Assembly: GCA_025060135.1 (NCBI GenBank)
Contig: JANXCY010000013.1
Location: 2,203 to 66,202, forward strand
Direction of reading: 5' to 3'
Length of the DNA stretch: 64,000 bases
Source: Anaerolineae bacterium
Lineage (GTDB): Bacteria > Chloroflexota > Anaerolineae > B4-G1 > DUEL01
The notes under the pieces were generated by a model. The model had not been told where the DNA came from. It did not search any database and was given only the letters and a program-made list of their open reading frames with translations. Positions 5,382 to 43,068 of this stretch are shown piece by piece (within the stretch, counting starts at the first letter, position 1; each line of letters opens with the position of its first letter). A program made the position numbers and the translations under genes.

Positions 5382-6821
5382 TCACCACTCCCTCTGGCCA
5401 TCGGCCAGGAAGCGGTTGATGTCGGCGGCGGCCCGCTTGCCGGCGCCCATCGCGCTCACTACCGTCGCCGCGCCGGTTACCACGTCCCCACCCGCCCAGA
5501 CCCGGGGCATCGTCGTCCGGCCCGTTTCCTCGTCCTTCACCACCACCGTCCCGTGCTTCGTCCGCTGTAACCCCTCCGCGTCCACGAAGACCAGCGGGTT
5601 CGGGCTGGTGCCCAGGGCGAAGATCACCATGTCCACATCCATTTCAAACTCCGAGCCGGGGATCGGGATCGGAGAGCGCCGACCAGAGGCGTCTGGCTCG
5701 CCCAGCGTCATCCGGATGCAGCGCATCCCCGCCACATTCCCCTTCGCATCCCCCAGAATCTCCACCGGATTGGTCAAAAAGTCAAAGATGACCCCTTCCT
5801 CTTCGGCGTGATGGACCTCTTCGGCTCGCGCCGGGACCTCGTCGCGGGAACGGCGGTAGACGATGTGGACTTCGCCGTCCTTCCCTCGCAGGGTCTGGAG
5901 ACGGAGCGCGCAGCGGGCGGCGTCCATTGCCACGTTCCCCGCGCCGATGACGGCGACTTTCCGCCCCACCTTCACCGGCGTGTCGTACTCTGGGAAGAGG
6001 TAGCCCTTCATCAGGTTGACGCGCGTGAGGAACTCGTTGGCGCTCATGACGCCGTTGTAGTTGATGCCCGGGATGCGCATGAACGAGGGGAGCCCGGCGC
6101 CCGTCCCCAGGAAGACCGCGTCGTACTCCGCCAGGAGTTCGGTCAGCGTGAGCGTCCGCCCAATGACGTGGTCAGTGCGAATCTGGATGCCCAGGCACTC
6201 CACCGCGTAGTCAATCTCCGCCTGGACGACGCTCTTGGGCAGACGGAACTCCGGGATGCCATAGACCAGGACGCCGCCGGGGGCATGCAGCGATTCAAAC
6301 ATCACCACCTCATGGCCCTCCCGGGCCACGTCCACCGCGCAGGTGAGCCCCGCCGGGCCGGTGCCGACGACGGCGACCTTCCGGCCGGTGGAGGGCTTGC
6401 GCTCCAGCGGGCAGGTCCGTCGGGCCAGTTCGTAGTCGCCCACGTACCGCTCCAGGCGTCCGATGGCAACGGGCTCGCCCTTCCTGGCCAGAACACAACG
6501 AACCTCACACTGGGTCTCCTGGGGGCAGACCCGCCCGCAGATGGCGGGAAGGCTGTTCTTGACCTTCATCGTCGCCACCGCGCCGACCATGTCCCCCTCC
6601 CGCAGCGCGCGGATAAACTCGGGGATCAAAACGCCCACGGGGCACCCATCCACACAGGGAGGGCGTGCGCACTGAAGGCATCGGTTCGCTTCCGCCACAG
6701 CCAGTTCTTCGGTCAATCCCAGCGCGACCTCGCGGAAGTTGCCCCGCCGGACGACCGGGTCCTGTTCGGGCATCTTCTGGCGGGGGATGCGGAGCCGTTC
6801 TCGTTGGGTAAGAGGGGTCAT
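5382..6821 (-). CDS. nfnB: NfnB/SudA-like large subunit: NADPH-dependent oxidoreductase, GltD family, with two [4Fe-4S] clusters and FAD.
   Basis: CLQCARPPCVDGCP and CGRVCPQ...C are cluster motifs. VAVVGTGPAGLTCA and VAVIGAGNVAMDAA are the two Rossmann motifs. The ATG overlaps the nfnA stop by 1 nt (ATGA at 6819-6823). Confidence 0.8.
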   Translation of the reverse strand: MTPLTQRERLRIPRQKMPEQDPVVRRGNFREVALGLTEELAVAEANRCLQCARPPCVDGCPVGVLIPEFIRALREGDMVGAVATMKVKNSLPAICGRVCPQETQCEVRCVLARKGEPVAIGRLERYVGDYELARRTCPLERKPSTGRKVAVVGTGPAGLTCAVDVAREGHEVVMFESLHAPGGVLVYGIPEFRLPKSVVQAEIDYAVECLGIQIRTDHVIGRTLTLTELLAEYDAVFLGTGAGLPSFMRIPGINYNGVMSANEFLTRVNLMKGYLFPEYDTPVKVGRKVAVIGAGNVAMDAARCALRLQTLRGKDGEVHIVYRRSRDEVPARAEEVHHAEEEGVIFDFLTNPVEILGDAKGNVAGMRCIRMTLGEPDASGRRSPIPIPGSEFEMDVDMVIFALGTSPNPLVFVDAEGLQRTKHGTVVVKDEETGRTTMPRVWAGGDVVTGAATVVSAMGAGKRAAADINRFLADGQREW

Positions 6822-7693
6822 CAGGTCGCCTCCTGCTCCTTCAGTATGCCCTCCAGGCGGCACTCGTGCTCCCAGCGTTCCACGGCCAGCCGCTCCTCGT
6901 CCCGGTAGAAGGAGAGACGAGCCAGGAGGTTGTCCCAGTCCACCTTGTGGCCGTCAAACTCCGGGCCGTCTACACAGACGAACTGTGCGCCCTCTTCCAG
7001 CAGGACGCGGCACCCGCCGCACATCCCCGTCCCGTCAATCATAATCGTGTTCAGACTGACGATGGTGGGGACGCCGAAGGGCTTCGTTGTTAGCGAGACG
7101 AATTTCATCATAATGGCGGGGCCGATAGCCCAGACGCGGGCAATCTCCTTCGCGCGCGCCTCCATCAGTTCTTTCAGAGGTTCGGTCACCAGCGCCTTGC
7201 GCCCGTAGGAGCCGTCGTCGGTGCAAACGATCAGTTCGTCCGAGACGGCGCGCATCCGCTCCTCCCAGAAGAGGAGACGCTTATTACGGGCACCGATAAT
7301 GGAGATGACAGAGTTCCCAGCCCCTTTGAGCGCGCGGGCGATGGGGAAGATGGGCGCGATCCCCACGCCGCCGCCCACACAGACGACTTTGCCGTAATGG
7401 GCGATTTCGGTGGGGTGGCCCAGAGGGCCGGCCAGCGTGGCCAGCGTATCGCCTACTCGCAGGGTGCCCAAATGCATGGTGGACTTGCCCACCTCCTGAA
7501 AGATGAGAGTGATGGTGCCAGCCTCCCGGTCATAGTCGGCAATGGTCAGGGGGATGCGTTCGCCCTGCTCGTCTATCCGGACAATGACAAACTGCCCGGC
7601 CTGCGCTTTGCGCGCCACATGGGGGGCTTCCACCACTATCAGTTTGGTTACATCGCTGAGAACCTGTTTTTCCAGAATCCGGTACACAGCCAC
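6821..7693 (-). CDS. nfnA: NfnA/SudB-like small subunit (PyrK-like FAD/[2Fe-2S] ferredoxin-NADP+ reductase).
   Basis: The fold is PyrK-like (VCVGGGVGIAPIF). The C-terminal Cys cluster is GMCGGCRV...CVDGPEF. It is translationally coupled to nfnB. Confidence 0.8.
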   Translation of the reverse strand: MAVYRILEKQVLSDVTKLIVVEAPHVARKAQAGQFVIVRIDEQGERIPLTIADYDREAGTITLIFQEVGKSTMHLGTLRVGDTLATLAGPLGHPTEIAHYGKVVCVGGGVGIAPIFPIARALKGAGNSVISIIGARNKRLLFWEERMRAVSDELIVCTDDGSYGRKALVTEPLKELMEARAKEIARVWAIGPAIMMKFVSLTTKPFGVPTIVSLNTIMIDGTGMCGGCRVLLEEGAQFVCVDGPEFDGHKVDWDNLLARLSFYRDEERLAVERWEHECRLEGILKEQEAT

Positions 7694-7861: not shown

Positions 7862-10603
7862 TTACCGTCCCTGCGCGGCCCGCAGGAGCAGACTCCCAAT
7901 CCGGGCCGCATCCTCCGGGATAGAGGCATGCTCCAGGAGGACGGCGACCGCATAGCGGGGCGCGTTCGCCGGCGCGACGCCCAAAAACCAGGCATGGGGC
8001 GGTCGGCCTGCCCCTGCCATCGCCGTCCCCAGGTGGCCAAGGGCATCCGGCGAGAAAGACTCCCAGGCCGCCAGCAGGACGCGCGCTGCATCCGGGGGCA
8101 GGACTTCCCGGGGGCGGCCCGGGACCTCTGGCGTCTGCCATGTCCCATCCGGCGCCTGGACCTCCAGCACCCGGCGCGGCACCGGCATCACCCCGTTGTT
8201 GGCCAGCGTCGCCGCCACCAGCGCCATCCGTAGCGGGGAGACGGTCAGGTCGCCCTGACCGATCGCCTCCCGCGCCGCATCAGCGGACATCCCCGCCACC
8301 CGGGGGGGAGGGGTCGGAAGAGCCGGCGACATGCCCTCCGGAGGTCGCGCCCGGGTTTCAGGAGGCCGTTCTGCGGGCACGGCCTCCATCAACCCCCAGC
8401 GAAGGAAGCCTTCCTCCAGCCTCTCTGGGCCCAGTTGCTCCCCCAGGACGGCGAAAGGGCCCGGGCAGGCGGCCCGCAGCGCGCCGATCATCCAATCTTC
8501 CGGTGAGACCTCCCCCCGGCAGGTTACCGTTACGCCGTTGATGAACAGGGTCGCAGTCAGGTTAGGAGCAGGGTTGTAGAGAGTGGTCAGGCCGCGCCGG
8601 AGGGCCTCCGCCAGGACCACCGTCTCCAGCGCCGCCCCGGGCTGGTAGGGCTGAAGGGCCCGGTTCAGCAACGGGCCGCCCGGGTCCTCCCGTAATTGCT
8701 CCCATTCCTCTTCCAGACGGTTGGGATCAAAGGTCGGCGAGGAGGCCATCGCCAGCACCTCGCCGCTGGAAGCGTCCAGCAGCACCACTGCGCCCGTCCG
8801 GCCCGCCAGGGATTGCGCGGCCAGCCGCTGGAGGACAACGTCCAGTGTCAGCCGCACATCCTGGCCATGGGAAGGGCGATGAAGGAGCGCATCCCATGCC
8901 GTCTCCCAGGCGGAACGGTCGGCCTCGCCGCGCAGGACCCGGTCCCATTCCGCCTCGATCCCGCTGGTGCCGTGGCGCAGACTGGCGTAGCCGACCACCG
9001 GCGCCGCCGTCGGTTCCGGATAGACGCGGGTAACCCACCCGTCTGGACTCACCGTCGCGTCGGCCAGGACAACTCCGTTTCGGTCCAGAATCTGGCCCCG
9101 GACGATGCGTTGCTCGTATTCCACCCGGCGGGGGTTATCCTCCCGCGCTACCAGCCATCCGGCCCGCAGAACCGACCAGTAGCCGCAGGCCAAAGCCAGG
9201 ATGGCCAGGGCGGCGCTCAGTCCCAGGGCCAGGTGGCGAACGGGCCGGACCCACTCGCGATCGCGGGGAGCCGGGGTGGTTCCCCCAGAGACCACCAGGA
9301 GCAGGCCCAGGGCGATGAACGTCGCCAGCAAGGAAGAGCCTCCGTACGAGAGGAAGGGCAGGGTTACCCCGGCAATGGGCACCAGTTTGACGTTCGCGGC
9401 CATGATGATCCAGGCCTGGACTCCCCAACCAGCGGTCAACCCAGCAGCCAGGAATCGCTCAAAGGGGCGGGGGGCCCGCAGGGCGACCCGCAGTCCCCGC
9501 AGCAGGAGAACCCCGTAGAGGGCAATGAGGGCCAGCGTTCCCAGGAGGCCAAACTCTTCGGCAACGGCAGCGAAAACGAAGTCAGTGTGAACGGCAGGGA
9601 TATAGGTAGGGCGGCCCAGGCCCAGGCCCTGGCCGAAAATCCCCCCGGCCCCGAAGGCCAGCAGGCTCTGGACGATCTGAAAGGCTTGGTCAGGGGCAGC
9701 AGGCCAGGGGAAGAGCCATATCTGAATCCGCAGCGCCACTCGCTCGGAGCCATAGTATCCCGCCATCCCGACCAGGAGGAAGAGCGCCAGTCCCCCGATC
9801 AGATACCCCCACTGGCTGGTGGCCAGGTAGAGCATGGCCAGGAAGGTGAAGAAGAGGAGCATCGCGGCGCCCAGGTCCTGCTGCGCGGCCAGGAGGAGAA
9901 GGGTGAGGCCGAACATCACCAGCAACGGGCCGACGTAGGCCAGCGGGGGAAGGTTGAGAGGACCAATGCGGTGTCCCGTCGCCTTCAGGAGTTCCCGCCG
10001 CTCAGCCAGATAGGAGGCCAGGAAGACGACCAGGAGAAGTTTCAGAGGCTCTGAGGGCTGGAAGTACGCGCCGCCGATGCCCAGCCAGAGACGGGGGCCG
10101 GCTCCACCGGGGTTGACGCCCAGGACCAGGGTGGCGGCCAAGAGGAGCAAACCCGCAAAGAGCCAGGTGTAGCGGTAACGGCGCAGCCAGCGCAGGGGAA
10201 CCGGCTCCCGCACCCCGATCTGGACGACGGCGATCATCGCTAGAGTGGAGAGGAGAAGCCAGGTCGCCTGGCGGGGGAGGAAATTGGGTGCCAGACGGGC
10301 CACCATGAGCAGGCCCCAACCGCTCAGGAAAGCGGCCACTGGAAGGAGCAACGGGTCTCGGTGGGGCAGGCAACGGGAGAAAGTGGCGTGGGCAGCGGCA
10401 AAGGAGAGGATGAAAGAAAGGAGCAGGCCAATGGCCCGCGCGAGACCCAGAGCGGGAGAGGCCATCAGCAGGGTGGCCGTGCCTGCCGCCACGAAGAGGA
10501 GGGCCAGCAGGAGCAACCCTCGCTCTCGTCGGACAACGAAGGGCGGATAAGGTTCAGTAGGATCCAACATAGGCGTCAGCCGATCCAGGTATCGCAGACG
10601 CAA
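7862..10603 (-). CDS. SEDS (FtsW/RodA/SpoVE) peptidoglycan polymerase fused to a class-B PBP-like domain whose catalytic motifs are degenerate.
   Basis: The N-terminal ~450 aa is polytopic with the SEDS signature GVTLPFLSYGGSSLL. The C-terminal region aligns with bPBP transpeptidases (NRALQPYQPGAALETVV vs NRAV..EPGSTVKP; IGQGDLTVSPLRMA..ATLANNG; GHLGTA..HAWFLGVAP vs GKSGTA..HAWF.GFAP). SxxK reads AALE, SxN reads AAC and KTG reads HLG. Confidence 0.8.
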   Translation of the reverse strand: MRLRYLDRLTPMLDPTEPYPPFVVRRERGLLLLALLFVAAGTATLLMASPALGLARAIGLLLSFILSFAAAHATFSRCLPHRDPLLLPVAAFLSGWGLLMVARLAPNFLPRQATWLLLSTLAMIAVVQIGVREPVPLRWLRRYRYTWLFAGLLLLAATLVLGVNPGGAGPRLWLGIGGAYFQPSEPLKLLLVVFLASYLAERRELLKATGHRIGPLNLPPLAYVGPLLVMFGLTLLLLAAQQDLGAAMLLFFTFLAMLYLATSQWGYLIGGLALFLLVGMAGYYGSERVALRIQIWLFPWPAAPDQAFQIVQSLLAFGAGGIFGQGLGLGRPTYIPAVHTDFVFAAVAEEFGLLGTLALIALYGVLLLRGLRVALRAPRPFERFLAAGLTAGWGVQAWIIMAANVKLVPIAGVTLPFLSYGGSSLLATFIALGLLLVVSGGTTPAPRDREWVRPVRHLALGLSAALAILALACGYWSVLRAGWLVAREDNPRRVEYEQRIVRGQILDRNGVVLADATVSPDGWVTRVYPEPTAAPVVGYASLRHGTSGIEAEWDRVLRGEADRSAWETAWDALLHRPSHGQDVRLTLDVVLQRLAAQSLAGRTGAVVLLDASSGEVLAMASSPTFDPNRLEEEWEQLREDPGGPLLNRALQPYQPGAALETVVLAEALRRGLTTLYNPAPNLTATLFINGVTVTCRGEVSPEDWMIGALRAACPGPFAVLGEQLGPERLEEGFLRWGLMEAVPAERPPETRARPPEGMSPALPTPPPRVAGMSADAAREAIGQGDLTVSPLRMALVAATLANNGVMPVPRRVLEVQAPDGTWQTPEVPGRPREVLPPDAARVLLAAWESFSPDALGHLGTAMAGAGRPPHAWFLGVAPANAPRYAVAVLLEHASIPEDAARIGSLLLRAAQGR

Positions 10604-10621: not shown

Positions 10622-13588
10622 CTACCTCCAGAGCGGGACGGCCTCCCACCTCCGGTCGTCCATCGGGGGGAGCGGGGTCATCCGGAAGCGCTCATAGGCG
10701 ACCAGCGTGGCCCGCACTCTGCCGCCCGTCCAGTCCGCCGGAATCAGGATGAGGTGGCGATCCCGGACCCGGGAGCCTGCAATCCATTTCAGTGTGGGGA
10801 CGGTGCCCAGTGCGGGCTGGCAATCATGCGCGCCCAGGAAGCGGCCCGTCTCGTCCGTCAGTCGAACACTGGTGGCGTCGTCGGTCGTCAGCGCGCGCAG
10901 CCCCACCAGCATCACGTCCACCGTCATCCCCGCGCCTGGAGCGACGGGGGAGGCCCGCACGCCCACCACCGCCATCTCGTCCCCCAGGGGCACAAAGCGG
11001 AGGTCGCCTGGCGGGATGACCAGCGATATCCGCTGCAGGGGCCAGCCCCACGGGCCCGCTGCCGTTCGCACCTGGCCGGGTCCGTCGGTTAGGGAAAGGA
11101 GAAGCAGGCCGCGCACCGTCCCGGGGAGGTCCACCGCGACGGTCTGATATGCGCCCGGGGCGAGGGCCGGGAGGGTGGCAGTCCCCTCCGCCCCGCCGGA
11201 AGCCCGGAGATGCAGAGTCCCGCCCGCCGTCGGGCCGCGCCAGTGGAGATAAACCCGCAAGGTGTCCGGCGCCGTCCGGTCGTAGTCGGCGCCGACCAGG
11301 ACGGGCCCTCCCGCATAGGGAACGCGCTGGGGATGGAGGGTGAAAGGCATACGGGTCGCAGACTCCACGTCCAGTTCGGTCAGAAGGGTGAACGACTCCC
11401 CGCCAGCCGTGAGCAGCGGTTCAAATCCGGCTGCGGAGACGGTGTACGCGCCCAGGAGCAGCCGGTAACGACCGGGCCGGAGAGTAGGGTAGAGAGGAAG
11501 CACCAGCCGCTCCCAGCGAATTTCGCCCGGAGCGACGTCCGTGCCCAGGTAACGGTCGGCCTGGGCCACCTCGCGCCCGTCGGCATCGGCCAGGCGCAGG
11601 GTGAAGGACGGCGCGCGGTCGGAGGGGGCCGTCCGTCTCCAGGCCAGGACAACCTCCAGGGCCTGCCCAGCCCGGAACGGCGGGGCAGGCAAGCGGTATC
11701 CCAGCAACTGGACGCCCTCGGCAAAGGCGATGTCCGTCCGGAAAATGGGCGCAGTGATTTCCCGAGCGGGTCGCCGGTGGAGGCGAAAGCCCCAGCCCAC
11801 CGGCTCAGCGCTGTAACCGGGGAAGTCGTAGAAGTGGGTCAGCAGGAGAGGACGGTCGGTGCCGATCTCTTCCACCCACCGCAGCCAGGTGGCCCCGTAG
11901 TCCTCCCCGACGACGGGATAGACGTACTCCACCCGCACATCGGGACGCCGTCCTTCCACTTGCTGGAGGTACCAGAGCGGGGTCGCCCAGTGCCAGTCGG
12001 CCAGGATGACGGCGCCCGGAGGAGCGGCCTCCAGAAGCGGCCCGACCGTCTGGCGGGTAGATGTATCGGCGGCCAGTTCGGTGATGCTCCAGTGTGCCTG
12101 GAGGTTCAGGACCCCTCCCCAGAGAGCCAGCGCCGCCAGAGGAAGTTGGAGTTTCACCACGAAGACGCGAAGACACGAAGTAAATTGATTATATTTTCTT
12201 TGTGTCTTTGTGTCTTCCTGGTTTGTACGATTTCTCCACCCGGCGGGGAGGAGGCCGACGGAGAGGGCAATCGGGAGGTATGCGGGCATCAGATATTCCA
12301 CCGTTTGAGGGGCCCGGTAGGTCAGGGTAACGTAGGTGTGGAGGAGGAAACTGCCCGCCAGCAGGAGGAAGAGCCGCCAATCTCGCCGGAGGACAGCCAG
12401 CAAGCCCAGAGCCGCCAGGGCCAGGAGGAGGCCGTTGAACTGGAAGGTGAGGAGCGTTGGGAGCAGCGCCAGACGGTGAGGGAAGTCCTGGGGATTGGCA
12501 AAGGCGAACATGTCCCCGGCGAACCCTTTCGCCAGGACGTGCCAGAGGAAGCCCTGGAGGGTATCCAGGTCGGGCGGGGCCAGGGGCGCGCCGGCCGCGC
12601 CGCGAATGGGCAGGTAGGCCAGCGGCACGAGCAGCGCGGCCAGAAAGACCAGGACAGGGCGCCACCACCGGCAGGGTTGCAGGAGCAGGCGGGGGTCCAC
12701 GTTCAGCAGATAGAGGATAAAGAAGACGCCGACGAAGGCCAGGGAGGGATGATGCCCGATACCCAGTCCCAGCGCCAGCGCCAGGAGGAGCAGCGCCTGG
12801 TCCCGCCCACCCATTCCCCATGGGCTCTCCGTTGCGAAGCGGGCTAGGGCGTAAAAGGCCAGGGCGGCGAAGAAGAGGGTGGGCATACGGATGTTGGCGA
12901 TAGCGGCCTGGGCCCAGAAGGTAGTGGCGGAGCCCAGCGTCAGTGCGGCAGCGAGGCCCCCCATGCGGGCCAGGAGGGGGGAGGCGCCCAGGTGGCGGGC
13001 CCAAAGGCGGGTCGCTCGGGCCAGCCAGAGCAGGGTAACGACCGCCATCGGCACGCTCATCAGGTTTAGCCGCAGCGCCGGGGGGCCGATGGGGACCAGT
13101 CGGATGAAGAGATGCCCGGCCATCGTATAGAGGGGGTAACCGGGCGGGTGGGCCACACCCAGGAGCGCGGCGGCCAACTGGAACTCGCCGCTATCGGCGG
13201 GGAGGACGTCCCGGGAAAGCGTGGCCAGGTAGAGGGCCGAAAACAGGACGCAGACTCCCGCGTCGGCCAGATGGTCGGCCTGGCGGTCGGAGAGGAGGGG
13301 CAGGCGAGCGCTCTCCCGCAACGATTCTATGGCCCAGACCAGGCAGGCAATGTTTGCCCATGCCAGAGGCAAAAGCCGCCAGGGCCAGAGGACGGCGACC
13401 AGGAGCACCAGCGCGGACCACCCGGTGATCGGAGCCCGGCGGCGGGTTAGGAGAAATCCCCCCGCCCCTCCGGCCAGTGCCAGTGCCAGGATGAAGCAAA
13501 CCGGCAGGGGAATGTCCGGGATCTCCAGCAGGAAGCGAGCCACTACCAGGCCCAGGAGGATGCCGTAGCCGACGGTGAGCCGACGCAT
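10622..13588 (-). CDS. DUF2723/TMEM260-like GT-C-fold glycosyltransferase (988 aa). The C-terminus carries repeated beta-rich modules.
   Basis: DSGEFQLAAALLGVAHPPGYPLY is the DUF2723 signature. It has more than 10 TM helices. The C-terminus carries about three modules similar to those ending the GT-C array proteins (LLGY...LEVVLAWRR...DGREVAQADRYLG...RPGRYRLLLGAY). An 18-nt gap separates it from the downstream SEDS-PBP gene. Confidence 0.7.
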   Translation of the reverse strand: MRRLTVGYGILLGLVVARFLLEIPDIPLPVCFILALALAGGAGGFLLTRRRAPITGWSALVLLVAVLWPWRLLPLAWANIACLVWAIESLRESARLPLLSDRQADHLADAGVCVLFSALYLATLSRDVLPADSGEFQLAAALLGVAHPPGYPLYTMAGHLFIRLVPIGPPALRLNLMSVPMAVVTLLWLARATRLWARHLGASPLLARMGGLAAALTLGSATTFWAQAAIANIRMPTLFFAALAFYALARFATESPWGMGGRDQALLLLALALGLGIGHHPSLAFVGVFFILYLLNVDPRLLLQPCRWWRPVLVFLAALLVPLAYLPIRGAAGAPLAPPDLDTLQGFLWHVLAKGFAGDMFAFANPQDFPHRLALLPTLLTFQFNGLLLALAALGLLAVLRRDWRLFLLLAGSFLLHTYVTLTYRAPQTVEYLMPAYLPIALSVGLLPAGWRNRTNQEDTKTQRKYNQFTSCLRVFVVKLQLPLAALALWGGVLNLQAHWSITELAADTSTRQTVGPLLEAAPPGAVILADWHWATPLWYLQQVEGRRPDVRVEYVYPVVGEDYGATWLRWVEEIGTDRPLLLTHFYDFPGYSAEPVGWGFRLHRRPAREITAPIFRTDIAFAEGVQLLGYRLPAPPFRAGQALEVVLAWRRTAPSDRAPSFTLRLADADGREVAQADRYLGTDVAPGEIRWERLVLPLYPTLRPGRYRLLLGAYTVSAAGFEPLLTAGGESFTLLTELDVESATRMPFTLHPQRVPYAGGPVLVGADYDRTAPDTLRVYLHWRGPTAGGTLHLRASGGAEGTATLPALAPGAYQTVAVDLPGTVRGLLLLSLTDGPGQVRTAAGPWGWPLQRISLVIPPGDLRFVPLGDEMAVVGVRASPVAPGAGMTVDVMLVGLRALTTDDATSVRLTDETGRFLGAHDCQPALGTVPTLKWIAGSRVRDRHLILIPADWTGGRVRATLVAYERFRMTPLPPMDDRRWEAVPLWR
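12160..12218. repeat. Low-GC palindromic (MITE-like) element inserted in-frame inside the DUF2723 gene.
   Basis: Left arm CGAAGACGCGAAGACACGAAG, an 18-nt AT-rich loop TAAATTGATTATATTTTC, and right arm TTTGTGTCTTTGTGTCTTCC. The arms match at 17/20 as an inverted repeat, and each arm contains a duplicated AAGACAC. The element is about 35% GC in a roughly 68% GC gene. It encodes the hydrophilic peptide RNRTNQEDTKTQRKYNQFTSCLRVFVVK between hydrophobic helices. Confidence 0.4.
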
Positions 13589-21759: not shown

Positions 21760-22017
21760 ATGACCGCAAAGGGAATGGTCATCATAGACGAAAACCGATG
21801 TAAAGGATGCGGGCTCTGCCTTGCCGTCTGCCCGGTCCACATCCTGAAACTGGCCGACGGTCGGTTCAACACCCGGGGCTACCGGCCTGTAGAAATAACG
21901 GACCCCGAAGCCTGTACCGGTTGCGCCATGTGCGCCATCATCTGCCCCGACGTGGTCTTTACCGTCTACCGCCGCAGGGCCCGTCGTGGGCAACCCGCTC
22001 CCCCCCCGACCGGTTGA
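21760..22017 (+). CDS. korD: 2-oxoacid:ferredoxin oxidoreductase delta subunit (2x[4Fe-4S] ferredoxin).
   Basis: The protein contains the two ferredoxin cluster motifs [12 protein letters not shown] and [12 protein letters not shown]. Confidence 0.7.
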
Positions 22018-22048
22018 CAGGCTGGACACCTCCTTGGAGCGAGTACCT

Positions 22049-23110
22049 ATGGCCAGAGAACTGTGGGAAGGGAATATGGCCATCGCGGAGGCCGCCGTTC
22101 GGGCAGGATTGGAGGCCTTCTTTGGTTACCCCATTACCCCTCAAACCGAGATCTTAGAGTATCTCTCTCGCCGTCTACCCGAACTGGGACGGGTCTTTCT
22201 GCAGGCCGAGAGCGAGGTGGCTTCCATCAATATGGTCTACGGCGCCGCCTGTGCCGGTGCCCGGGTGATGACTTCTTCCTCCAGCCCCGGCATCAGCCTG
22301 ATGCAGGAGGGGTTCTCGTATATCGCCTGCTCCGAAGTCCCCGCCGTTGTGGTGAACCTGATGCGGGGCGGGCCCGGCCTGGGGAATGTGGCCCCCTCTC
22401 AGGGAGACTACTTTCAAGCCGTGAAGATGGCCGGACATGGCGACTTCCACCCCATCGTCCTGGCCCCGGGCAGCATCCAGGAAGCGATTGACCTGACCAT
22501 CCTGGCCTTTGACCTGGCGGATCGGTATCGCACCCTGGCAATGATTGTCGCGGACGGGTCCCTGGGCCAGATGATGGAACCCGCCGAGATGCCCCCGATG
22601 CGCCCCGTCCGTCCGCCCGGTGAGCGCCCCCCCTGGGCGCTCACCGGGGCTCGGGGCCGCCTGCCCAATGTGATTACTTCCCTCTACCTGGCGGAAGAAG
22701 ACCTGGAACAGGTCAATCTGCGCCTGCAGGCCAAACTGCGTCGAATTGCGGCGAACGAAGTCCGCTGGAAGGAGTACGCCACCGACGACGCCGAACTGCT
22801 CATAGTGGCCTTCGGCACAGTGGGGCGGATCTGCCAGACGGTGGTGCGGGAAGCCCGGGCTAAAGGCTTGAAAGCCGGCCTCCTGCGCCCGGTTACCCTC
22901 TGGCCCTTCCCCTCGACCCGTATCGCCGAACTGGCTGCGCGAGTGCGAGGAATGCTGGTCGTGGAGATGAACGCCGGGCAGATGCTGGAGGACGTCCGAC
23001 TGGCAGTGGAGGCCCGCTGCCCCGTCCGCTTCTACGGCCGGCTGGGCGGCATGATCCCCCTGCCGGATGAGATTCTGCCCCAACTGGAAGCAATGGACGC
23101 GGAGGTATGA
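22049..23110 (+). CDS. korA: 2-oxoacid:ferredoxin oxidoreductase alpha subunit.
   Basis: The POR/KOR alpha fold is present ([10 protein letters not shown]...[10 protein letters not shown]...[12 protein letters not shown]). The start is taken at MARELWEG; the ORF track begins at 21986. Confidence 0.85.
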
Positions 23111-23905
23111 ATGGCCACCGGACAGGACATCCCTCCCGATATGGAACCGGTCTACCAGTACCCGGAAAGTTTGACCTCCCGGTTCACCCACTACTGCCCC
23201 GGCTGTACCCATGGGGTTATCCATCGGCTCATCGCCGAAGTGATTGACGAACTGGGCATCCGGGAGCGGACGGTCGGCGTGGCGCCGGTGGGGTGCGCGG
23301 TGCTGGCGTACGATTACTTCAACCTGGACTTCTGCGAGGCAGCCCACGGACGGGCTCCAGCAATGGCGACCGGCATCAAACGAGTCAGTCCGGATACGGT
23401 GGTCTTCACCTACCAGGGGGACGGCGACCTGGCGGCCATCGGCACCGCGGAGATCATCCATGCCGCCAACCGGGGAGAACTCATCACCACCATCTTCGTC
23501 AACAACGCCATCTACGGGATGACCGGCGGGCAAATGGCCCCCACCACCCTACCCGGCCAGGTTACCACCTCTTCCCCCGGTGGGCGGGACGTCCGGATGG
23601 CCGGCTGGCCCATCAAAATGGCCGAACTGATCGGGGTGCTCCCCGGCGCTGCCTACGTTACCCGACAGGCTGTGTTAGACGTACCCGGAATCCGACGCGC
23701 CAAACAGGCCATCCGACTGGCTTTCCGAGTCCAACTGGCCGGCCTGGGTTTCTCTATGGTGGAAATCCTTTCCACCTGCAACACCAACTGGGGACTCTCG
23801 CCGCTGGAGGCGCTGGAATGGGCAAAGGCCCACATGGTCCCCTATTACCCCCTGGGGGACACCAAGGTGGCCGACGCAGTACGCGCGCTGATGGAGCAAG
23901 CATAG
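23111..23905 (+). CDS. korB: 2-oxoacid:ferredoxin oxidoreductase beta subunit (TPP-binding).
   Basis: The TPP-binding motif GDGD reads GDGDLAAIG...[11 protein letters not shown]. It starts 1 nt after the korA stop. Confidence 0.85.
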
Positions 23906-23947
23906 CCCAGGCCGTCAGGCCTGTATCCTCCCCCAACGGAGACGCAC

Positions 23948-24487
23948 ATGCAGGAAGAAATCCTTATCTCCGGCTTTGGCGGTCAGGGAACCCTTTTTGC
24001 CGGACAGATGCTGGCCTACGCGGCTATGGACGCGGGATTCCACGTTACCTGGATTCCCTCCTACGGCCCGGAAATTCGCGGTGGCCGGTCCCGCTGTACC
24101 GTGATCATCTCGGACCAAGAAATCGGTTCCCCCCTGGTCCGCCACCCCAGCGCGGCCATTGTGATGAGCATCCCCTCCATGGAAGCCTTTGAGCCCGCTG
24201 TCCGACCCGGAGGAGTGCTGGTGGTCAACGCTTCCCTGATCCCTATGCGGAGCCAGCGCCCGGACCTCCGCGTCCTCTACGTCCCGGCGCTGGAAATGGC
24301 AATGGAACTGGGGAGCACCCGGGTGGCCAATATGATCTGTCTGGGCGCGCTGGTACAAGCCATGAGCATCCTGCCGCTGGAAACCATAGAACAGGCCATG
24401 GATCGTTACCTGGGAGAACCACATCGGCAGTGGCTTTCGCTGAACAAGGAGGCTCTGCGGCGAGGAGCATCCCTGGCGATGCAGTAG
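23948..24487 (+). CDS. korC: 2-oxoacid:ferredoxin oxidoreductase gamma subunit.
   Basis: ILISGFGGQGTLFAGQMLA is the canonical gamma-subunit N-terminus. Confidence 0.8.
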   Translation: MQEEILISGFGGQGTLFAGQMLAYAAMDAGFHVTWIPSYGPEIRGGRSRCTVIISDQEIGSPLVRHPSAAIVMSIPSMEAFEPAVRPGGVLVVNASLIPMRSQRPDLRVLYVPALEMAMELGSTRVANMICLGALVQAMSILPLETIEQAMDRYLGEPHRQWLSLNKEALRRGASLAMQ

Positions 24488-24496
24488 ACACCATAG

Positions 24497-24596
24497 GGGA
24501 AAACCAGGCGGGAGTGGATGGGAGTCGAACCCACCGCGGCCCGCTCTGCGCGACCCGCCACCGGTTTTGAAGACCGGGAGGCCCACCGGGACCCAA
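24497..24596 (-). tRNA. selC: tRNA-Sec (selC), anticodon UCA.
   Basis: Minus strand reads 5'-GCGGGGGUGGUUGGGUCCCGGUGGGCCUCCCGGUCUUCAAAACCGGUGGCGGGUCGCGCAGAGCGGGCCGCGGUGGGUUCGACUCCCAUCCACUCCCGCC. The acceptor is GCGGGGGU/ACUCCCGC. The D-arm is GGGUCC-CGGU-GGGCCU, a 6-bp stem with a 4-nt loop as in E. coli selC. The anticodon arm is CCGGU-CUUCAAA-ACCGG. The variable arm is about 24 nt. The T-arm is GGUUCGACUCC. CCA is not encoded. Confidence 0.75.
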
Positions 24597-24606
24597 CCAC
24601 CCCCGC

Positions 24607-24635
24607 AGACAGTTCTATCATAATCGAAATAGCCC
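24607..24635 (-). promoter_or_regulatory. Promoter for tRNA-Sec: TTGACG, 17 nt, TATGAT.
   Basis: Minus strand: -35 is the revcomp of 24630-24635 and -10 the revcomp of 24607-24612. The predicted TSS lies within a few nt of the tRNA 5' end. Confidence 0.5.
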
Positions 24636-24657
24636 ATTCCGTCAAGGTGAACGCGCG

Positions 24658-26910
24658 ATGGCGATGAATGACCATACGCTCTCCTGGCCCACCGGCCCTG
24701 TCCTTCGGAACGTCGCCGCCCTCGTCCGCTACCGGATCGGCGAGACCTCCTCCACCCTGCGCCTGACCGAACCGAACTGCCCGATCCAGGCTCCCGGCCT
24801 CCAAGCCTTCTGGCGACAGGAACCGGCTCCCAACGGCTACCAGTTCTGGCTGGAACTGACCGCCTCCGGCGAGGCCCCCATCTATCTGGAGACCACGGAC
24901 GTCCTGACGGCTCGGGCCCCCGACCTGGGCGCGCCCCCGGCAACCTGGCGCGTCTATCAAAACGGCTGGCAATCGTGGAGCCCCACCTTCGTCCGCCACC
25001 TGGAGGGCACCCGCTACGCGGACCCGGGCACCCCGGAATACCGCGCTGCCCATCAGCCCCACTGGGAGCCCGACTACGATGGCCTGATTTCCTCTGAATG
25101 GGTGGCCGTCCTCTTCGCCCCACCCGCTACTGCCCTCCTCCTGGGCTTCCTCACCGCGAAGGACCAACTGGCGGAAATCCGCCTGCGCGCCGATGGTTCC
25201 GAACTGACCGCGCGCTGCCACCTGGACAGCGTCCTCCTGGCCCCCGGCGCCTCCCTGCGGACAGAGGTCCTGTGGGTAGCGGCCGGGCCCGACCCCCTGC
25301 GACTGCTGGAAGCGTGGGCGGAGGCCATTGCCCGGGAAATGGGAGCACGGGCCCCTCATCCCACCATCGGCGGCGAAGCCGCCACCGAAGGGGCCAGGGG
25401 GAGAGGGGAGAGCCCCCCCACCGGCTGGTGCACCTGGTACTACTTCTACGGTGAGAATACCGCCGACGATATCCTGGATAACCTGCGCGCCATCGCCAAC
25501 CACCGCCTGCCACTGGACGTCATCCTCATTGACGATGGCTACCAAACGGCCATTGGGGACTGGTTCTCCATCCAAACCGACAAATTCCCCGACGGGATGG
25601 AGCCCGTCGCCGAGGCTGTCCGCGCCGCTGGACACCGGCTGGGCATCTGGACCGCGCCCTTCGGCGCAGCAGCGACGTCTCAACTCTTCGCCACGCATCC
25701 CGATTGGGTCGTGCGGGATGAGAGCGGCGCTCCCGTCGTCGGCTGGGTCCATTGGGGCGTGCCCTGCTACGCCCTGGACTGCACCCATCCGGAAGTCCTG
25801 GCCTGGCTGGAGGAGACCTTCCGGCGGATGCGCCGGGAGTGGGGGGCGACGTTCTTTAAGATAGACTTCCTCTTCGCCGCCGCGCGGCCGGGCCGCCGGT
25901 ACGACCCCACCGCCACCCGTGCGCAGGCCCTGCGGCGAGGCGTGGAGGCCATCCGCAACGCCATCGGAGACGACGCCTTCCTCCTGGGCTGTGGCGCGCC
26001 CCTGGGCCCGTGTATCGGCCTGGTGGACGGCATGCGCATCGGCACCGACGTGGACCCAAACTGGCATCCTATCTTCCGCTACGACCTTTCAGCGGTCTCC
26101 ACCGAGAACGCGCTCCGCAACAGCATCACCCGCGCGCCGTTCCATAACCGCCTCTGGCTCAACGACCCGGATTGCCTCCTGGTCCGCCAGCGGGGCCCGG
26201 ACCTGGACCTGGTCCTTAACGAAGTGCGCACCCTGACCGCTGTCATCGCCCTGCTGGGAGGGCTCACCATCAACTCGGACAACCTGGCCCTCATCCGTCC
26301 GGGACGGCTCAAATATCTCCGGCAGGCGCTCCCGCCCACGGGCATCTCCGCCCGACCGCTGGACCTCTTTGAGCACGAGATGCCCCGCTTGCTCCTCCTG
26401 CCGGTGGAGCGGGATTGGGGCCGCTGGTGGGTAGCGGGAGTCATCAACTGGGAAGACCGTACCGTGGAGACCCCTGTCCGCCTGATCGACCTGGGCCTGC
26501 CCGCCGGGCGTTACCACGTCTTCCACTACTGGCGTCGCCGCTACCTGGGGGTGACGGACGATACAGTGATTCTGCGCCGCCACCAGCCCCACGAGACCGC
26601 CGTCCTGCTCTTGAAACCGGTTTCCGACCGGCCCGACCTGCTGACCACCACCTTTCACGTCTGCCAGGGGGCGGTGGAGGTGGCAGATTGCCGCTGGGAT
26701 GAAACGCACCATCTCCTGTACATTGCACTGGAGAAAGCAGGAGTGCAGTACGGCGAGGTCTGGCTCACGGCGCCGGAACCGTGGGAGACCATAGAGGTCC
26801 GGGTGAACGGCGAACGACACCCCTGGGTCTCTCCGGCCCCGGGTATCCTGCGGATCGGCCTGACCTTGGAAGGGCGCTCGGAAGTTACCGCGAGGTTCCG
26901 GAAACGATGA
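24658..26910 (+). CDS. GH36 alpha-galactosidase (melibiase family).
   Basis: GWCTWYYFYGENT, DVILIDDGYQTAIGDW, KIDFL and GCGAPLGP are GH36 catalytic-core motifs. Confidence 0.8.
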   Translation: MAMNDHTLSWPTGPVLRNVAALVRYRIGETSSTLRLTEPNCPIQAPGLQAFWRQEPAPNGYQFWLELTASGEAPIYLETTDVLTARAPDLGAPPATWRVYQNGWQSWSPTFVRHLEGTRYADPGTPEYRAAHQPHWEPDYDGLISSEWVAVLFAPPATALLLGFLTAKDQLAEIRLRADGSELTARCHLDSVLLAPGASLRTEVLWVAAGPDPLRLLEAWAEAIAREMGARAPHPTIGGEAATEGARGRGESPPTGWCTWYYFYGENTADDILDNLRAIANHRLPLDVILIDDGYQTAIGDWFSIQTDKFPDGMEPVAEAVRAAGHRLGIWTAPFGAAATSQLFATHPDWVVRDESGAPVVGWVHWGVPCYALDCTHPEVLAWLEETFRRMRREWGATFFKIDFLFAAARPGRRYDPTATRAQALRRGVEAIRNAIGDDAFLLGCGAPLGPCIGLVDGMRIGTDVDPNWHPIFRYDLSAVSTENALRNSITRAPFHNRLWLNDPDCLLVRQRGPDLDLVLNEVRTLTAVIALLGGLTINSDNLALIRPGRLKYLRQALPPTGISARPLDLFEHEMPRLLLLPVERDWGRWWVAGVINWEDRTVETPVRLIDLGLPAGRYHVFHYWRRRYLGVTDDTVILRRHQPHETAVLLLKPVSDRPDLLTTTFHVCQGAVEVADCRWDETHHLLYIALEKAGVQYGEVWLTAPEPWETIEVRVNGERHPWVSPAPGILRIGLTLEGRSEVTARFRKR

Positions 26911-37610: not shown

Positions 37611-39173
37611 ATGTACTCTGAGACGACCCCACGGAACACGAAAAACGCAACACGGATGAAACGCCGTCGCACCGACTGGGCCGCCCTTCAGGGCTGTGCG
37701 CTCACCGGATTCGTACTGCTCTGGCTGATCGGAGCCGGACTGGTGGGGTATACGTTTGTTGCGCTGGGCCGGCAGCCGACGCCCACCCCGGTGCCGCCAC
37801 CGACTCCTCCGCCCTCTCCTACGCCGACAGCGACCCTCACTCCGACCCCTACGCCCAGCCCAACGCCGACCTTCACCCCGACACCGATGCCCAGCCCGAC
37901 CCCAACTCCAACGCGTACTGCGACGCCGACTCCCCGCCCCACTCTCCCCCTGCTCTTTCCGCCGGGCACCATGGTTATTCCTTCTCCCTTCCCGATGCCC
38001 ACGCCCGACCCCAACGCGCCCCCTGATGCAGCCATCCCGACGCCCGTGAGTCCCATCCCCGTCGCCGCCGACGCCGTCAACATCGTCGTCTTGGGCAGCG
38101 ATAAACGCCCCCATTGGACGGAATGGCACACCGACGCCATCCACATCGTCTCCATCCAGCGGAACCGGGCTGTCGTCTCCGTCATCTCCATCCCGCGCGA
38201 CCTCTATGTCTACATCCCCGGCGACGGGATGAACCGCATCAACATGGCCGACTACCACGGCGAGGCTACCGGCTACCCGGGCGGCGGGTGGGGCAACCTG
38301 CGGGATACGCTCCTCTACAACCTGGGCATCCGCGCGGACTACTACGTCCGCACCGACTTTGACGGCCTCATCGGCATCGTAGACGCGCTGGGCGGCATAG
38401 AAGTCCCCGTCCACTGCCGCCTGAGCGACCACTGGCCTTATCCCGACGCCAGCGGACAGTACCCCATCTTCACCCTGGAACCGGGCGTCCACCATCTGGA
38501 CGGCGAACAGGCCCTCTGGTACGCCCGCTCCCGGATGACGACCAGCGTCTTCTCCCGGGACCGCCGTCAGCAACAGGTCTTGCAGGCCATCTGGCACAAA
38601 ATCCGGGACGGCGGCTGGCTGGCCCAAATTCCCACCCTTTGGGACCAGTTCCAGAGCATGTTTGTGACCAACTTAGACCTGCCCACCGTCCTGGACCTGG
38701 CACGGGTGGCCTTTTTCCTGCCGGAACAGAACATCCGCTATTACAATATTGGCGCGCAGCATGTAACGCCCTGGGTAACCTCCTGGGGCGGGAACGTCTT
38801 CGTGCCCCGGTGGGAGGCGATAGAGCCACTCCTGCGGGAAGCCATGGCGCCGCCTTCCGAAGGCCGCCTGACCCGAACCTTTATGCCCGTGGAAGTCTGG
38901 AACGGGACCCCCAACCCGGACTGGGACCTGCTGGCGGTGGACCGGCTGATCCGGGCAGGCTTCCCGGCCATCCCAGGTCAACCGGATCGCCGGGATTACC
39001 CCCAGACGATGCTCATTGTCTTCCGGGAGCATGCCAAGGGGATAGGCGTGGAGGACCTGAAACGGATGTTCGGGATTCCTGAGGAGCGGGTGTCCTACGA
39101 GCCTAACTGGGGCACCGCCTACGGCTTCCGCCTGATCATCGGCGCCGATTATCAGACGTGCTATGAGAGATAG
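37611..39173 (+). CDS. LCP (LytR-CpsA-Psr) family glycopolymer transferase with a long Pro/Thr-rich linker.
   Basis: A TM anchor is followed by a PT-repeat linker of about 75 aa (37760-37990), then an LCP catalytic domain (NIVVLGSDKRP...SIPRDLYVYIPG...NRIN) and a LytR_C-like end. Confidence 0.8.
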   Translation: MYSETTPRNTKNATRMKRRRTDWAALQGCALTGFVLLWLIGAGLVGYTFVALGRQPTPTPVPPPTPPPSPTPTATLTPTPTPSPTPTFTPTPMPSPTPTPTRTATPTPRPTLPLLFPPGTMVIPSPFPMPTPDPNAPPDAAIPTPVSPIPVAADAVNIVVLGSDKRPHWTEWHTDAIHIVSIQRNRAVVSVISIPRDLYVYIPGDGMNRINMADYHGEATGYPGGGWGNLRDTLLYNLGIRADYYVRTDFDGLIGIVDALGGIEVPVHCRLSDHWPYPDASGQYPIFTLEPGVHHLDGEQALWYARSRMTTSVFSRDRRQQQVLQAIWHKIRDGGWLAQIPTLWDQFQSMFVTNLDLPTVLDLARVAFFLPEQNIRYYNIGAQHVTPWVTSWGGNVFVPRWEAIEPLLREAMAPPSEGRLTRTFMPVEVWNGTPNPDWDLLAVDRLIRAGFPAIPGQPDRRDYPQTMLIVFREHAKGIGVEDLKRMFGIPEERVSYEPNWGTAYGFRLIIGADYQTCYER

Positions 39174-40065
39174 ACCTGTGGTGGTCATAAAGGGCGGCGG
39201 TGATCTGGGCACGGGTGTCGCCTGGCGGCTCCACCGCTGCGGCTTTCGCGTCCTGGTTACCGAGATTGCCCGGCCCACGGTCATCCGCCGCGCGGTGGCC
39301 TTCGCCTCGGCGGTCTATGAGGGAACCATCACCGTAGATGGCGTTACCGCGCGGCGGGTGGAGGATGAGGCCGGTATCCGGGCCGCCTGGGCCGCCGACG
39401 AGGTCCCCGTTGTCGTGGACCCGCAGGCGGAATGGGCCGCGCGCCTCCGCCCCCTGGCGGTGATAGACGCCATCATGGCCAAGCGCAACACCGGCACCCG
39501 GATCACCGATGCACCGATTGTGGTGGCGCTGGGACCGGGATTCGTCGCCGGCGTGGATTGCCATGCGGTGGTGGAGACCCATCGGGGCCACAACCTGGGA
39601 CGGGTCATCCTGGAAGGGAGCGCCGAGCCGGATACGGGCGTCCCTGGCGAGCTGGGCGGCGAGAGCGCGCGGCGGGTCCTGCGCGCGCCCACCGACGGCA
39701 TCTTTCGGGGAATCCGCGCCATCGGCGACCAGGTACAGGCCGGAGAGGCGGTGGCCTATGTGGACAACGTCCCCGTCCTATCCCAACTGGACGGCGTCCT
39801 GCGAGGCCTCCTCCACGACGGGCTGAGAGTACGCGCGGGGATGAAGGTGGGGGATGTGGACCCCCGGGCCGTCGTCGCCCACTGCTTCACCATCTCCGAT
39901 AAGGCCCTGGCAGTCGGCGGAGGAGTGCTGGAAGCGGTCCTCTACCTGGCCCGCCGGGTTTCCCGCTCCCCAGAGGGTGCAGGAGCCATCGGAGATGATA
40001 TAGGGATGGGGCGGCAGCCTGAGACTACCGTCCCATCCCCTGGTCCTTCGCCTCTCCCAGATTAG
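39163..40065 (+). CDS. XdhC/YqeB-like Rossmann protein. It may be the EF2563-family selenium-dependent molybdenum hydroxylase maturation factor.
   Basis: VVIKGGGDLGTGVAWRLHRCGFRVLVTE...PTVIRRAVAFASAVYEG resembles the YqeB/EF2563 family. The identification is from memory and is not conclusive. The probable start is GTG at 39178. Confidence 0.4.
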   Translation: MRDRPVVVIKGGGDLGTGVAWRLHRCGFRVLVTEIARPTVIRRAVAFASAVYEGTITVDGVTARRVEDEAGIRAAWAADEVPVVVDPQAEWAARLRPLAVIDAIMAKRNTGTRITDAPIVVALGPGFVAGVDCHAVVETHRGHNLGRVILEGSAEPDTGVPGELGGESARRVLRAPTDGIFRGIRAIGDQVQAGEAVAYVDNVPVLSQLDGVLRGLLHDGLRVRAGMKVGDVDPRAVVAHCFTISDKALAVGGGVLEAVLYLARRVSRSPEGAGAIGDDIGMGRQPETTVPSPGPSPLPD

Positions 40066-41068: not shown

Positions 41069-41384
41069 CGCTGATCACCTCCTGGAAAGATTGAGCCGAA
41101 CGACAAGGACCTCCGCCGGTGCCCTGTCGCCAGGCCGCCGGGCTGAGCACACAGGCCCACCGCCTGCGCTACGGATCACCGGGAAGGTGTGTCGTAACGC
41201 CCACTCATTATACCATGCCCCGCCCCCCAATTCCTCTTCGCTGGCCAGCAAGGGGAGATCTCCAAAAACACCAGGTGGAAAGACGGTCGTATCCACTGGC
41301 AACCGAGAGAGAACGATACGCCCGACTTGCCCGGTCGCAGCGCCTGTGTTATGATTGAGCAAGCCTTTATAATGTAGCAGGGGA

Positions 41385-42728
41385 GTGCCGATGATTTCTT
41401 GGGACGTTGAAATTGCCGAGGCCATTCGCCATCTCCAGGCTCTGATCCGCATCCCCACCGTCAATCCGCCAGGGAACGAGAAACCGGCAGCGGAGTACCT
41501 GGCGGATGTACTCGCCGCCGAGGGGTACGACCCAGTCGTGCTGGAATCGGCGCCGGGGCGGGGGAACGTCGTCGCCCGCTACCGGGGAAGCGGAGAGGCA
41601 CCGCCACTCTTGCTCCTTTCCCACCTGGACGTGGTGCCAGCCGAGCGGGAGAAATGGGAGCGCGACCCCTTCGGCGGCGAACTGGTGGACGGCTACGTCT
41701 GGGGGCGCGGGGCGCTGGATATGAAATTCGCCACCGCGATGCAACTGGAAACGATGCTCCTCCTGGCCCGCCAGGGACTCCCCCTGAAACGGGACGTCAT
41801 TTTCGCCGCCACTGCCGACGAAGAGGCGGGAGGCCGTTACGGCATCGGCTACCTGATAGACCACCACCCGGAGAAAATCCGCGCGGAATACGCGCTGACG
41901 GAATTCGGCGGATTCCCCCTCAACGTGGGCGGAAAGCGCATCTACCTCTGCCAGACGGCGGAGAAGGGCATCTGCTGGGTGCGGATGCGGGCCCGGGGAG
42001 CACCAGGACACGGGTCTGTTCCTCACCAGGACAACGCGGTGGTCAAACTGGCGGAGGCGGTAGCGAAACTGGGCCGGGCTACTCTCCCCTTCCACCACAC
42101 CGACACGGTGGCCGGGATGGTGGAGGGGATGGCCGCCGCGCTGGGTGGCCTGCGGGGTACGGTCCTGCGCGGCATTCTGAATCCGACGTTAAGTTCCCTG
42201 ATCCTGCGCCGGGCCATCCGGGACCCTCAGCAGGTGCGTTACTTCCACGCGCTCCTGCACAACACCGTTTCTCCTACCGTCCTGCGGGCTGGGAGCAAGA
42301 CCAACGTCATCCCGTCGGAGGCGGAGGCGGAACTGGATGGCCGGATTCTCCCCGGGCAAGACCTGAATTCCTTCCTGGCCGAAGTGCGGGCCGTTGTAGG
42401 AGACGGCTTGGAGTTTGAGCCCATTCTGGTGGCACCCCCGGTGGCGACGGACCACCGGACTCCGCTTTTTGCGGCGATGGCGGAGGGATTGCGTCGGCGC
42501 GACCCGGAGGCGGTTGCGGTGCTGCCCATGATGGTAACCGGCGGGACGGACGCGAAACACCTGGCGCGGGCTGGCATCCCCTGCTACGGCTTCACCCCGG
42601 TCCAGTTGCCGCCGGAGATGAACTTTATGCAGATGATCCACGGCCACAACGAACGAGTCCCGGTGGACGGCCTGGCCTTCGGCGTCCGGGTGCTGTATGA
42701 GGTCGTGGTGGAGTTTTGTCAGAAGTAA
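41385..42728 (+). CDS. M20-family metallopeptidase/deacylase.
   Basis: LSHLDVVPA, WGRGALDMK, the ATADEEAGG dimetal site and HGHNE are present. Confidence 0.8.
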   Translation: MPMISWDVEIAEAIRHLQALIRIPTVNPPGNEKPAAEYLADVLAAEGYDPVVLESAPGRGNVVARYRGSGEAPPLLLLSHLDVVPAEREKWERDPFGGELVDGYVWGRGALDMKFATAMQLETMLLLARQGLPLKRDVIFAATADEEAGGRYGIGYLIDHHPEKIRAEYALTEFGGFPLNVGGKRIYLCQTAEKGICWVRMRARGAPGHGSVPHQDNAVVKLAEAVAKLGRATLPFHHTDTVAGMVEGMAAALGGLRGTVLRGILNPTLSSLILRRAIRDPQQVRYFHALLHNTVSPTVLRAGSKTNVIPSEAEAELDGRILPGQDLNSFLAEVRAVVGDGLEFEPILVAPPVATDHRTPLFAAMAEGLRRRDPEAVAVLPMMVTGGTDAKHLARAGIPCYGFTPVQLPPEMNFMQMIHGHNERVPVDGLAFGVRVLYEVVVEFCQK

Positions 42729-43060: not shown

Positions 43061-43068
43061 CTGCGCTG

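Follow-up and report, generated by a model that had tools for sequence, protein, structure and literature searches.

Does the short gap between korC and a glycoside hydrolase gene, in a 64-kb stretch of contig JANXCY010000013.1 (the whole stretch is called the window below), carry a gene for a selenocysteine (Sec) transfer RNA (tRNA), and what would such a gene say about the reading of UGA in this organism? An earlier note, made from the letters of the DNA, had placed a tRNA-Sec with anticodon UCA on the minus strand between these two genes, and ARAGORN, Rfam and the covariation among relatives all bear this out. We are highly confident that the element is the selC gene of the organism: a canonical bacterial tRNA-Sec, arranged as a stand-alone unit with its own sigma-70-type promoter. 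The kind of gene is ordinary, long known and found by standard tools, and nothing in it departs from known biology.

Anatomy of the tRNA-Sec gene

ARAGORN, which the earlier note had named as a check, calls tRNA-SeC(tca) at 24507..24604 on the minus strand, the sole tRNA in the window. A scan of the whole window with Rfam 15 at gathering thresholds likewise yielded a single family, RF01852 (tRNA-Sec), whose match at 24510..24604 (minus strand) covers the full covariance model (model positions 1-91 of 91) and scores 71.4 bits versus a gathering score of 47 (E 1.3e-12). All parts of the tRNA were read directly from the minus strand of 24350-24800:

24509..24604, minus strand: mature tRNA-Sec from G1 (24604) to the discriminator G73 (24509), 96 nt (ARAGORN, Rfam RF01852; RNAalifold gives the same fold on 18 sequences)
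24597..24604, minus strand: 5' strand of the acceptor stem, GGGGGUGG, paired with CCACUCCC at 24510-24517; 8 bp including one G-U (ARAGORN cloverleaf)
24596-24595, minus strand: linker UU (ARAGORN cloverleaf)
24579..24594, minus strand: D-arm GGGUCC-CGGU-GGGCCU with a 6-bp stem and the 4-nt loop CGGU (ARAGORN and RNAalifold)
24561..24577, minus strand: anticodon arm CCGGU-CUUCAAA-ACCGG with a 5-bp stem and a 7-nt loop (sequence and ARAGORN)
24570-24568, minus strand: anticodon UCA, within the loop CUUCAAA
24536..24558, minus strand: long variable arm, a 23-nt stem-loop with a 4+4 bp stem, a G-G mismatch and a 5-nt loop (ARAGORN and RNAalifold)
24518..24534, minus strand: T-arm GUGGG-UUCGACU-CCCAU with a 5-bp stem, G-U as its first pair and the loop UUCGACU (ARAGORN and RNAalifold)
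24509, minus strand: discriminator G73 (sequence)
24507..24508, minus strand: partial CCA end, CC followed by T; both bases lie within the ARAGORN call (sequence)

All stems are intact, and the 8-bp acceptor stem and the 5-bp T stem form an acceptor branch of 13 bp (ARAGORN; RNAalifold, n = 18). This 8/5 arrangement with its 13-bp branch defines bacterial tRNA-Sec, and a long variable arm together with G73 makes up the identity set of seryl-tRNA synthetase (SerRS) (PMC5389517). Each of the sequence-level marks of the class is present in the window tRNA: UCA in a 7-nt loop, the 13-bp 8/5 branch, the 6-bp D stem with a 4-nt loop, and the variable arm with G73.

The D-stem GGGUCC/GGGCCU with its CGGU loop, the anticodon arm and the T-arm had been written in the earlier note just as they are found here, and its ~24-nt variable arm corresponds to the 23-nt stem-loop. 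The acceptor register proposed there, GCGGGGGU starting from 24606, is 2 nt off: the true 5' end is G24604, and the stem is formed by the two strands listed above. In the former register, C(-1) and G(-2) of the precursor happen to pair with G73 and C74; since relatives, all of which start with GGG and end with CCCG, do not keep these two additional pairs, the mature RNA comprises 96 nt to the discriminator instead of about 100 nt without CCA. The 3' end reads GCC-T, so that the gene lacks the last A of CCA, which must be added post-transcriptionally; among the matches listed in the comparative set described below, a full GCCA 3' end is encoded in 72 of the 122 tRNA-Sec sequences collected, the remainder being without it. 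The locus is also found, at 99.98% identity, in the public metagenome-assembled genome GCA_033581355.1 and, at 100%, in an independent Logan assembly (SRR15826899), one short contig of which spans part of the tRNA.

Conservation and covariation

For comparison, a search of one genome per GTDB species for an anticodon arm followed, after 15-32 nt, by a T loop returned at least 120 loci from many phyla; all counts over relatives and other phyla given here refer to the matches listed. ARAGORN calls tRNA-SeC in essentially all of the 120 loci listed. The 17 sequences nearest to the window tRNA-Sec are 83-96% identical to it, and all of them are from Chloroflexota, mostly Anaerolineae/Anaerolineales: they include those of an uncultured Anaerolineales genome (L045, 96% identical, with its differences in the D-arm and base pairing kept), an Anaerolineaceae genome (L072, 94%) and a further Anaerolineales genome (L051, 92%). 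Judged by this likeness of the tRNA, the window probably stems from an Anaerolineae-type member of the Chloroflexota.

From the window sequence and these 17 relatives, RNAalifold recovered the 8/5 cloverleaf independently, and 15 of its 32 pairs have changed on both sides with pairing kept. Standard pairs occupy 98.4% of the cells in this alignment of 18 sequences, versus 45-53% after a shift of the 3' partners by 1-3 columns, and none of 500 shuffles reached the observed values of pairing and covariation. The covarying pairs fall in the D stem (five of six, with 100% of the cells paired), the variable arm (seven of eight) and the acceptor stem (three of eight); across the 13-bp acceptor branch, 97-100% of the cells are paired. 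The T stem consists of five regular pairs (G-U, U-A, G-C, G-C, G-C) in all 18 aligned sequences, and its invariant G-U first pair resembles the G49-U65 pair of E. coli. The search pattern itself fixed the anticodon and T arms, so that their constancy among the relatives is uninformative either way. Elsewhere in the molecule, the fold is upheld by compensatory changes across the clade, which argues for continuing selection.

Promoter and transcript

Upstream of the tRNA, the hexamers TTGACG and TATGAT, separated by 17 nt (24645..24617, minus strand), match the sigma-70 consensus at 10 of 12 positions, with a spacing inside the 16-18 nt taken for sites of this type; 12 nt separate the -10 hexamer from G1. 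A consensus scan of 2 kb (23500-25500) found this single sigma-70-like site, with 0.3 expected from shuffles. Its -35 hexamer lies outside the interval assigned to the element earlier, which ended at 24635.

When the 60 nt 5' of each Chloroflexota tRNA-Sec gene were surveyed by the same criteria, a -35/-10 site was found in 12 of 18 genes (the window and 11 of its 17 relatives), where 0.2 are expected from shuffles and the downstream control regions gave 0. The spacer measures 17 nt in 11 of these sites and 18 nt in one, and the -10 hexamer ends 6-26 nt, mostly 6-13 nt, before G1. Just 6 of 100 tRNA-Sec loci from other phyla have such an upstream site. The conserved position among Chloroflexota tRNA-Sec genes supports the view, already taken in the earlier note, that the gene has its own promoter. 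The start site, which that note had put at the mature 5' end, has to be moved: given the 12 nt between the -10 hexamer and G1, transcription probably starts a few bases 5' of the mature end, near 24608-24612, so that the transcript would carry a short leader as a substrate for RNase P.

The divergent hydrolase gene lies close by. Its first ATG (24658) is 53 nt from the tRNA 5' end, the ATG of the public gene call (24664) is 59 nt from it, and its ribosome-binding site AAGGTG (24642-24647) overlaps the -35 hexamer of the tRNA promoter. With so tight a spacing, the hydrolase messenger RNA would start inside or beyond the tRNA promoter and gene, or would arise by read-through from korABC, antisense to the tRNA; transcriptional interference in this gap is possible.

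Presumed path from transcript to UGA codon

The steps by which the tRNA could act are taken over from the established bacterial Sec pathway and are fitted here to the observed sequence, fold, covariation and upstream site. RNase P would remove the 5' leader of roughly 4-8 nt, the 3' end would be trimmed and the CCA-adding enzyme would supply the terminal A. SerRS, using the long variable arm and G73 as identity elements, would charge the tRNA with serine; SelA would then convert Ser-tRNA-Sec to Sec-tRNA-Sec with selenophosphate provided by SelD. SelB would bring the Sec-tRNA-Sec to those in-frame UGA codons behind which a selenocysteine insertion sequence (SECIS) hairpin lies, the 13-bp 8/5 acceptor branch presumably excluding EF-Tu and permitting the binding of SelB.

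Is the tRNA used for selenocysteine?

Several negative results weigh against a selC gene in use. No intrinsic terminator was found downstream of the tRNA. The genes selA, selB and selD are absent from the 64-kb window, both in six-frame tblastn searches with the Mycobacterium asiaticum proteins SelA, SelB and SelD (from locus L043, verified by TIGR00474, TIGR00475 and TIGR00476) and in NCBIfam and Pfam scans of the open reading frames (ORFs). Two scans of the window for TGA codons lying in frame between stretches with coding signal agree with the earlier note that no selenoprotein gene is present: they returned nothing beyond cases of adjacent genes and one artefact. Sel genes were also not found in the ~4 kb past the right window end, where a partial epimerase gene, genes for an AAA-family ATPase, an RmlD-like reductase and RNase III, and the remainder of the methylmalonyl-CoA mutase gene interrupted by the window end are located. 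With no sel genes in the window, SelA, SelB, SelD and the selenoprotein genes must be located elsewhere in the genome. The earlier note was right in its call of the tRNA-Sec; its further statement, that the organism decodes UGA as Sec, is an inference.

The candidates rejected in these searches are readily accounted for. LepA (59517-61319) touches the selB model as a generic GTPase only. Among the TGA candidates, one that runs antisense to the FtsW-PBP gene (described below) is an artefact, and the junctions between korA and korB and between the paralogues at 49552 and 51499 are adjacent genes sharing a frame. A frame across TGA also joins a gltA-like gene (5382-6863) to an ArsM-like gene (4566-5324), the gltA-like product being complete at the TGA, and another joins 3305-3667 to 3680-4468, an EncB cargo gene and an encapsulin shell gene with a ribosome-binding site between them. 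The ArsM-like protein (minus strand) belongs to an arsenite-methyltransferase family (NF008823, 304.6 bits versus a cutoff of 263) of which selenoprotein (UU) variants exist in NCBIfam; despite the tRNA-Sec in the genome, this protein uses Cys-Cys, with CCGP occurring three times near its N terminus, and its gene stops at TAG.

How much the missing sel genes matter depends on how often they accompany the tRNA. Within the 8-kb block of each of the 120 listed loci, tblastn found selB in 39, selA in 31 and selD in 19; the Chloroflexota loci bearing sel genes are only L110, L027 and L106. None of the 8-kb tRNA-Sec loci of the nearest Anaerolineae relatives has selA, selB or selD, and NCBIfam shows no recurrent sel family among 58 flanking ORFs at the 17 Chloroflexota loci. 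With so few Chloroflexota loci carrying sel genes, an unlinked tRNA-Sec is normal in the clade.

A second selenium-related gene had been proposed in the window:

39163..40065, plus strand: yqeB, selenium-dependent molybdenum cofactor biosynthesis family (TIGR03309 equivalog, 375.9 bits versus a cutoff of 220)

The identification as YqeB holds by the TIGR03309 equivalog; Pfam gives no match for this ORF. The gene lies 14.5 kb from the tRNA-Sec, between genes of the LytR-CpsA-Psr family and of the UbiA family of prenyltransferases, and its start shares 11 nt with the end of the gene before it. In the NCBIfam scan of window ORFs, neither YqeC nor SelD has a match, and no molybdenum hydroxylase gene is found near yqeB. 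The signature of the cofactor trait requires YqeB and YqeC together (PMC5029168). YqeB alone is no marker of that trait and, with no yqeC in the window, is a hint of the second selenium trait that the earlier note had proposed on condition that the identification was right. The equivalog in the window suggests selenium metabolism, and hence SelD, in the genome.

The alternative that survives best, although we consider it unlikely, is an orphan or relic tRNA-Sec: selA and selB would have been lost or never been present, and the tRNA would be unused or, being serylated only, act at most as a weak Ser-inserting opal suppressor. The window, with neither sel genes nor selenoprotein candidates, speaks for such a relic, incomplete selenium traits have been reported in some genomes (PMC5029168), and the loci of the nearest Anaerolineae relatives, which themselves have no selA, selB or selD, give no reassurance through linkage. 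Yet the gene is intact, all its stems are paired and its promoter is close to the consensus, and the compensatory changes keep the fold across the clade; moreover, 64 kb amount to only a few percent of a genome, selC stands apart from the other sel genes in many bacteria, and YqeB suggests a SelD-dependent selenium metabolism. We regard it as very unlikely that the intact tRNA-Sec and the lone YqeB persist without SelA and SelB, with the tRNA in another role (e.g., low-level insertion of Ser at UGA), or that Sec-tRNA is made or delivered by unrecognised enzymes.

A look-alike would be a tRNA of another class: a selC*-type tRNA-Cys(UCA) or an allo-tRNA, by which UGA would be read as Cys or Ser. 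These classes share with the window tRNA the long variable arm, the extended acceptor stem and, in some members, the UCA anticodon, but the selC* tRNA-Cys has U73 and its described forms are 8/4, the allo-tRNAs have a 12-bp branch in an 8/4 or 9/3 arrangement, and the groups with reported selC* genes are Firmicutes, Thermodesulfobacteria, Nitrospirae and Proteobacteria but do not include Chloroflexota (PMC5389517). The window tRNA has G73 instead of U73 and a 13-bp 8/5 branch instead of one of 12 bp, and it matches the whole RF01852 model well above the gathering threshold; a look-alike is therefore highly improbable. That the cloverleaf arose by chance in GC-rich intergenic DNA, or that a structured transcription terminator or insulator separates korC from the hydrolase gene, is effectively refuted and of negligible probability: the element does take up most of the 170 nt between the two plus-strand genes, and its antisense strand would be highly structured as well, but the Rfam E-value, a covariation that tracks the tRNA fold, and homologues in 17 other Chloroflexota in unrelated contexts (the flanks are shared by 0 of the 120 listed loci) speak for a tRNA.

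Use of Sec by the organism is likely, in view of the intact tRNA and promoter, the compensatory fold across the clade and the record of Chloroflexi selenoproteins, which have been known since 2006 (PMC1794560). By its tRNA-Sec, this probable Anaerolineae genome is likely to be one that uses selenocysteine, in which gene callers may truncate or split selenoprotein genes (e.g., formate dehydrogenase) at UGA; Sec-aware tools are advisable.

Genomic surroundings

The genes next to the tRNA are context and lie outside its unit:

21986-23110, plus strand: korA (Pfam POR_N/TPP_enzyme_C/POR scan)
23111-23905, plus strand: korB (Pfam POR_N/TPP_enzyme_C/POR scan)
23948..24487, plus strand: korC, gamma subunit of 2-oxoacid:ferredoxin oxidoreductase (Pfam POR, 1.2e-40; TIGR02175, 82.1 bits versus a cutoff of 81.1)
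24658..26910, plus strand: glycoside hydrolase, divergent from the tRNA (partial, weak Pfam matches to Melibiase/GH31)

A small ferredoxin gene lies upstream of korABC, which converges on the tRNA: the korC stop codon is 19 nt from the tRNA 3' end. The flanks named in the earlier note fared differently: korC stands by Pfam POR and TIGR02175, and the 'alpha-galactosidase' on the other side is plausible, not firm, with its weak Melibiase/GH31 matches. When 12 proteins of the window were compared by tblastn with the 120 listed tRNA-Sec loci, no match was obtained, so that the context of korC and the hydrolase is not conserved there.

In E. coli, selC serves as an integration site. Around the window gene, no second copy of the 3' 25 nt of the tRNA was found in the window at up to three mismatches, and no integrase was noticed among the neighbours; with its 3' end unrepeated, nothing points to an island inserted at selC.

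The window sequence is already public. It is 99.97-99.98% identical to the contigs JAVQTM010000042.1 (window 18460-41377) and JAVQTM010000041.1 (from ~42984), with JAVQTM010000042.1 99.84% identical over the last 12 kb, and 99.9-100% identical to three short Logan contigs of SRR15826899. The two matching contigs of GCA_033581355.1 break around an M20-family peptidase gene (41385-42728), and the window spans this gap of ~1.6 kb (41377-42984); it therefore stems from a less fragmented assembly of the same population.

Several other loci in the window were noted in passing. An encapsulin operon (3305-4468, plus strand) consists of a cargo gene for an EncB-family ferritin-like protein (3305-3667; NF058679, 119 bits) and the shell gene of a family-1 encapsulin (3680-4468, plus strand; NF041155, 215 bits; PF04454 Linocin_M18). 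On the minus strand, a 913-aa protein (7862-10603) unites an FtsW/RodA-family domain and a penicillin-binding transpeptidase domain; its gene adjoins that of a 988-aa protein (10622-13588) in which a TMEM260-like O-mannosyltransferase domain occurs. Three paralogous ORFs in tandem (645, 677 and 650 aa; 49552-55491, plus strand) have no NCBIfam match; they are preceded by two large ORFs resembling membrane glycosyltransferases (45336-47561 and 47522-49462), and further upstream lies a 798-aa ORF without a match (42943-45339). Together, these ORFs probably make up a cluster for cell-envelope glycosylation, some members of which are uncharacterised.

Comparison with known tRNA-Sec genes

Knowledge of selenocysteine decoding is unchanged by this gene, and its place among the known kinds can be given closely. 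Variants of tRNA-Sec with an 8/4 arrangement, marked by a 4-bp T stem and a bulge at 51a, have been reported in Actinobacteria and Chloroflexi (PMC5389517). The Chloroflexi variants share the phylum and the anticodon with the window tRNA, which is not one of them because its T stem has five regular pairs.

The prototype of the gene is E. coli selC, with which it shares UCA in a 7-nt loop, the 8+5-bp branch, the 6-bp D stem with the CGGU loop, the long variable arm, G73 and the arrangement as a stand-alone gene with its own promoter. Unlike the E. coli kind, the window gene has no encoded terminal A and no sel genes nearby. When the window tRNA was compared by blastn with all complete E. coli genomes, nothing matched at E 0.01; its sequence and that of E. 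coli selC are too diverged for such a search, which is silent on family membership.

The closest likeness is to the other Chloroflexota tRNA-Sec genes. They have the same cloverleaf and the same GGG...CCCG ends, and often only GCC or GC is encoded at their 3' end; they differ from the window gene in their neighbour genes, which are wholly different, and in the D stem and variable arm, which have diverged by compensatory substitutions. In the listed set, the tRNA-Sec genes of Chloroflexota tend to stand alone behind a near-consensus promoter and are rarely linked to sel genes, whereas many of the loci from other phyla are sel-linked.

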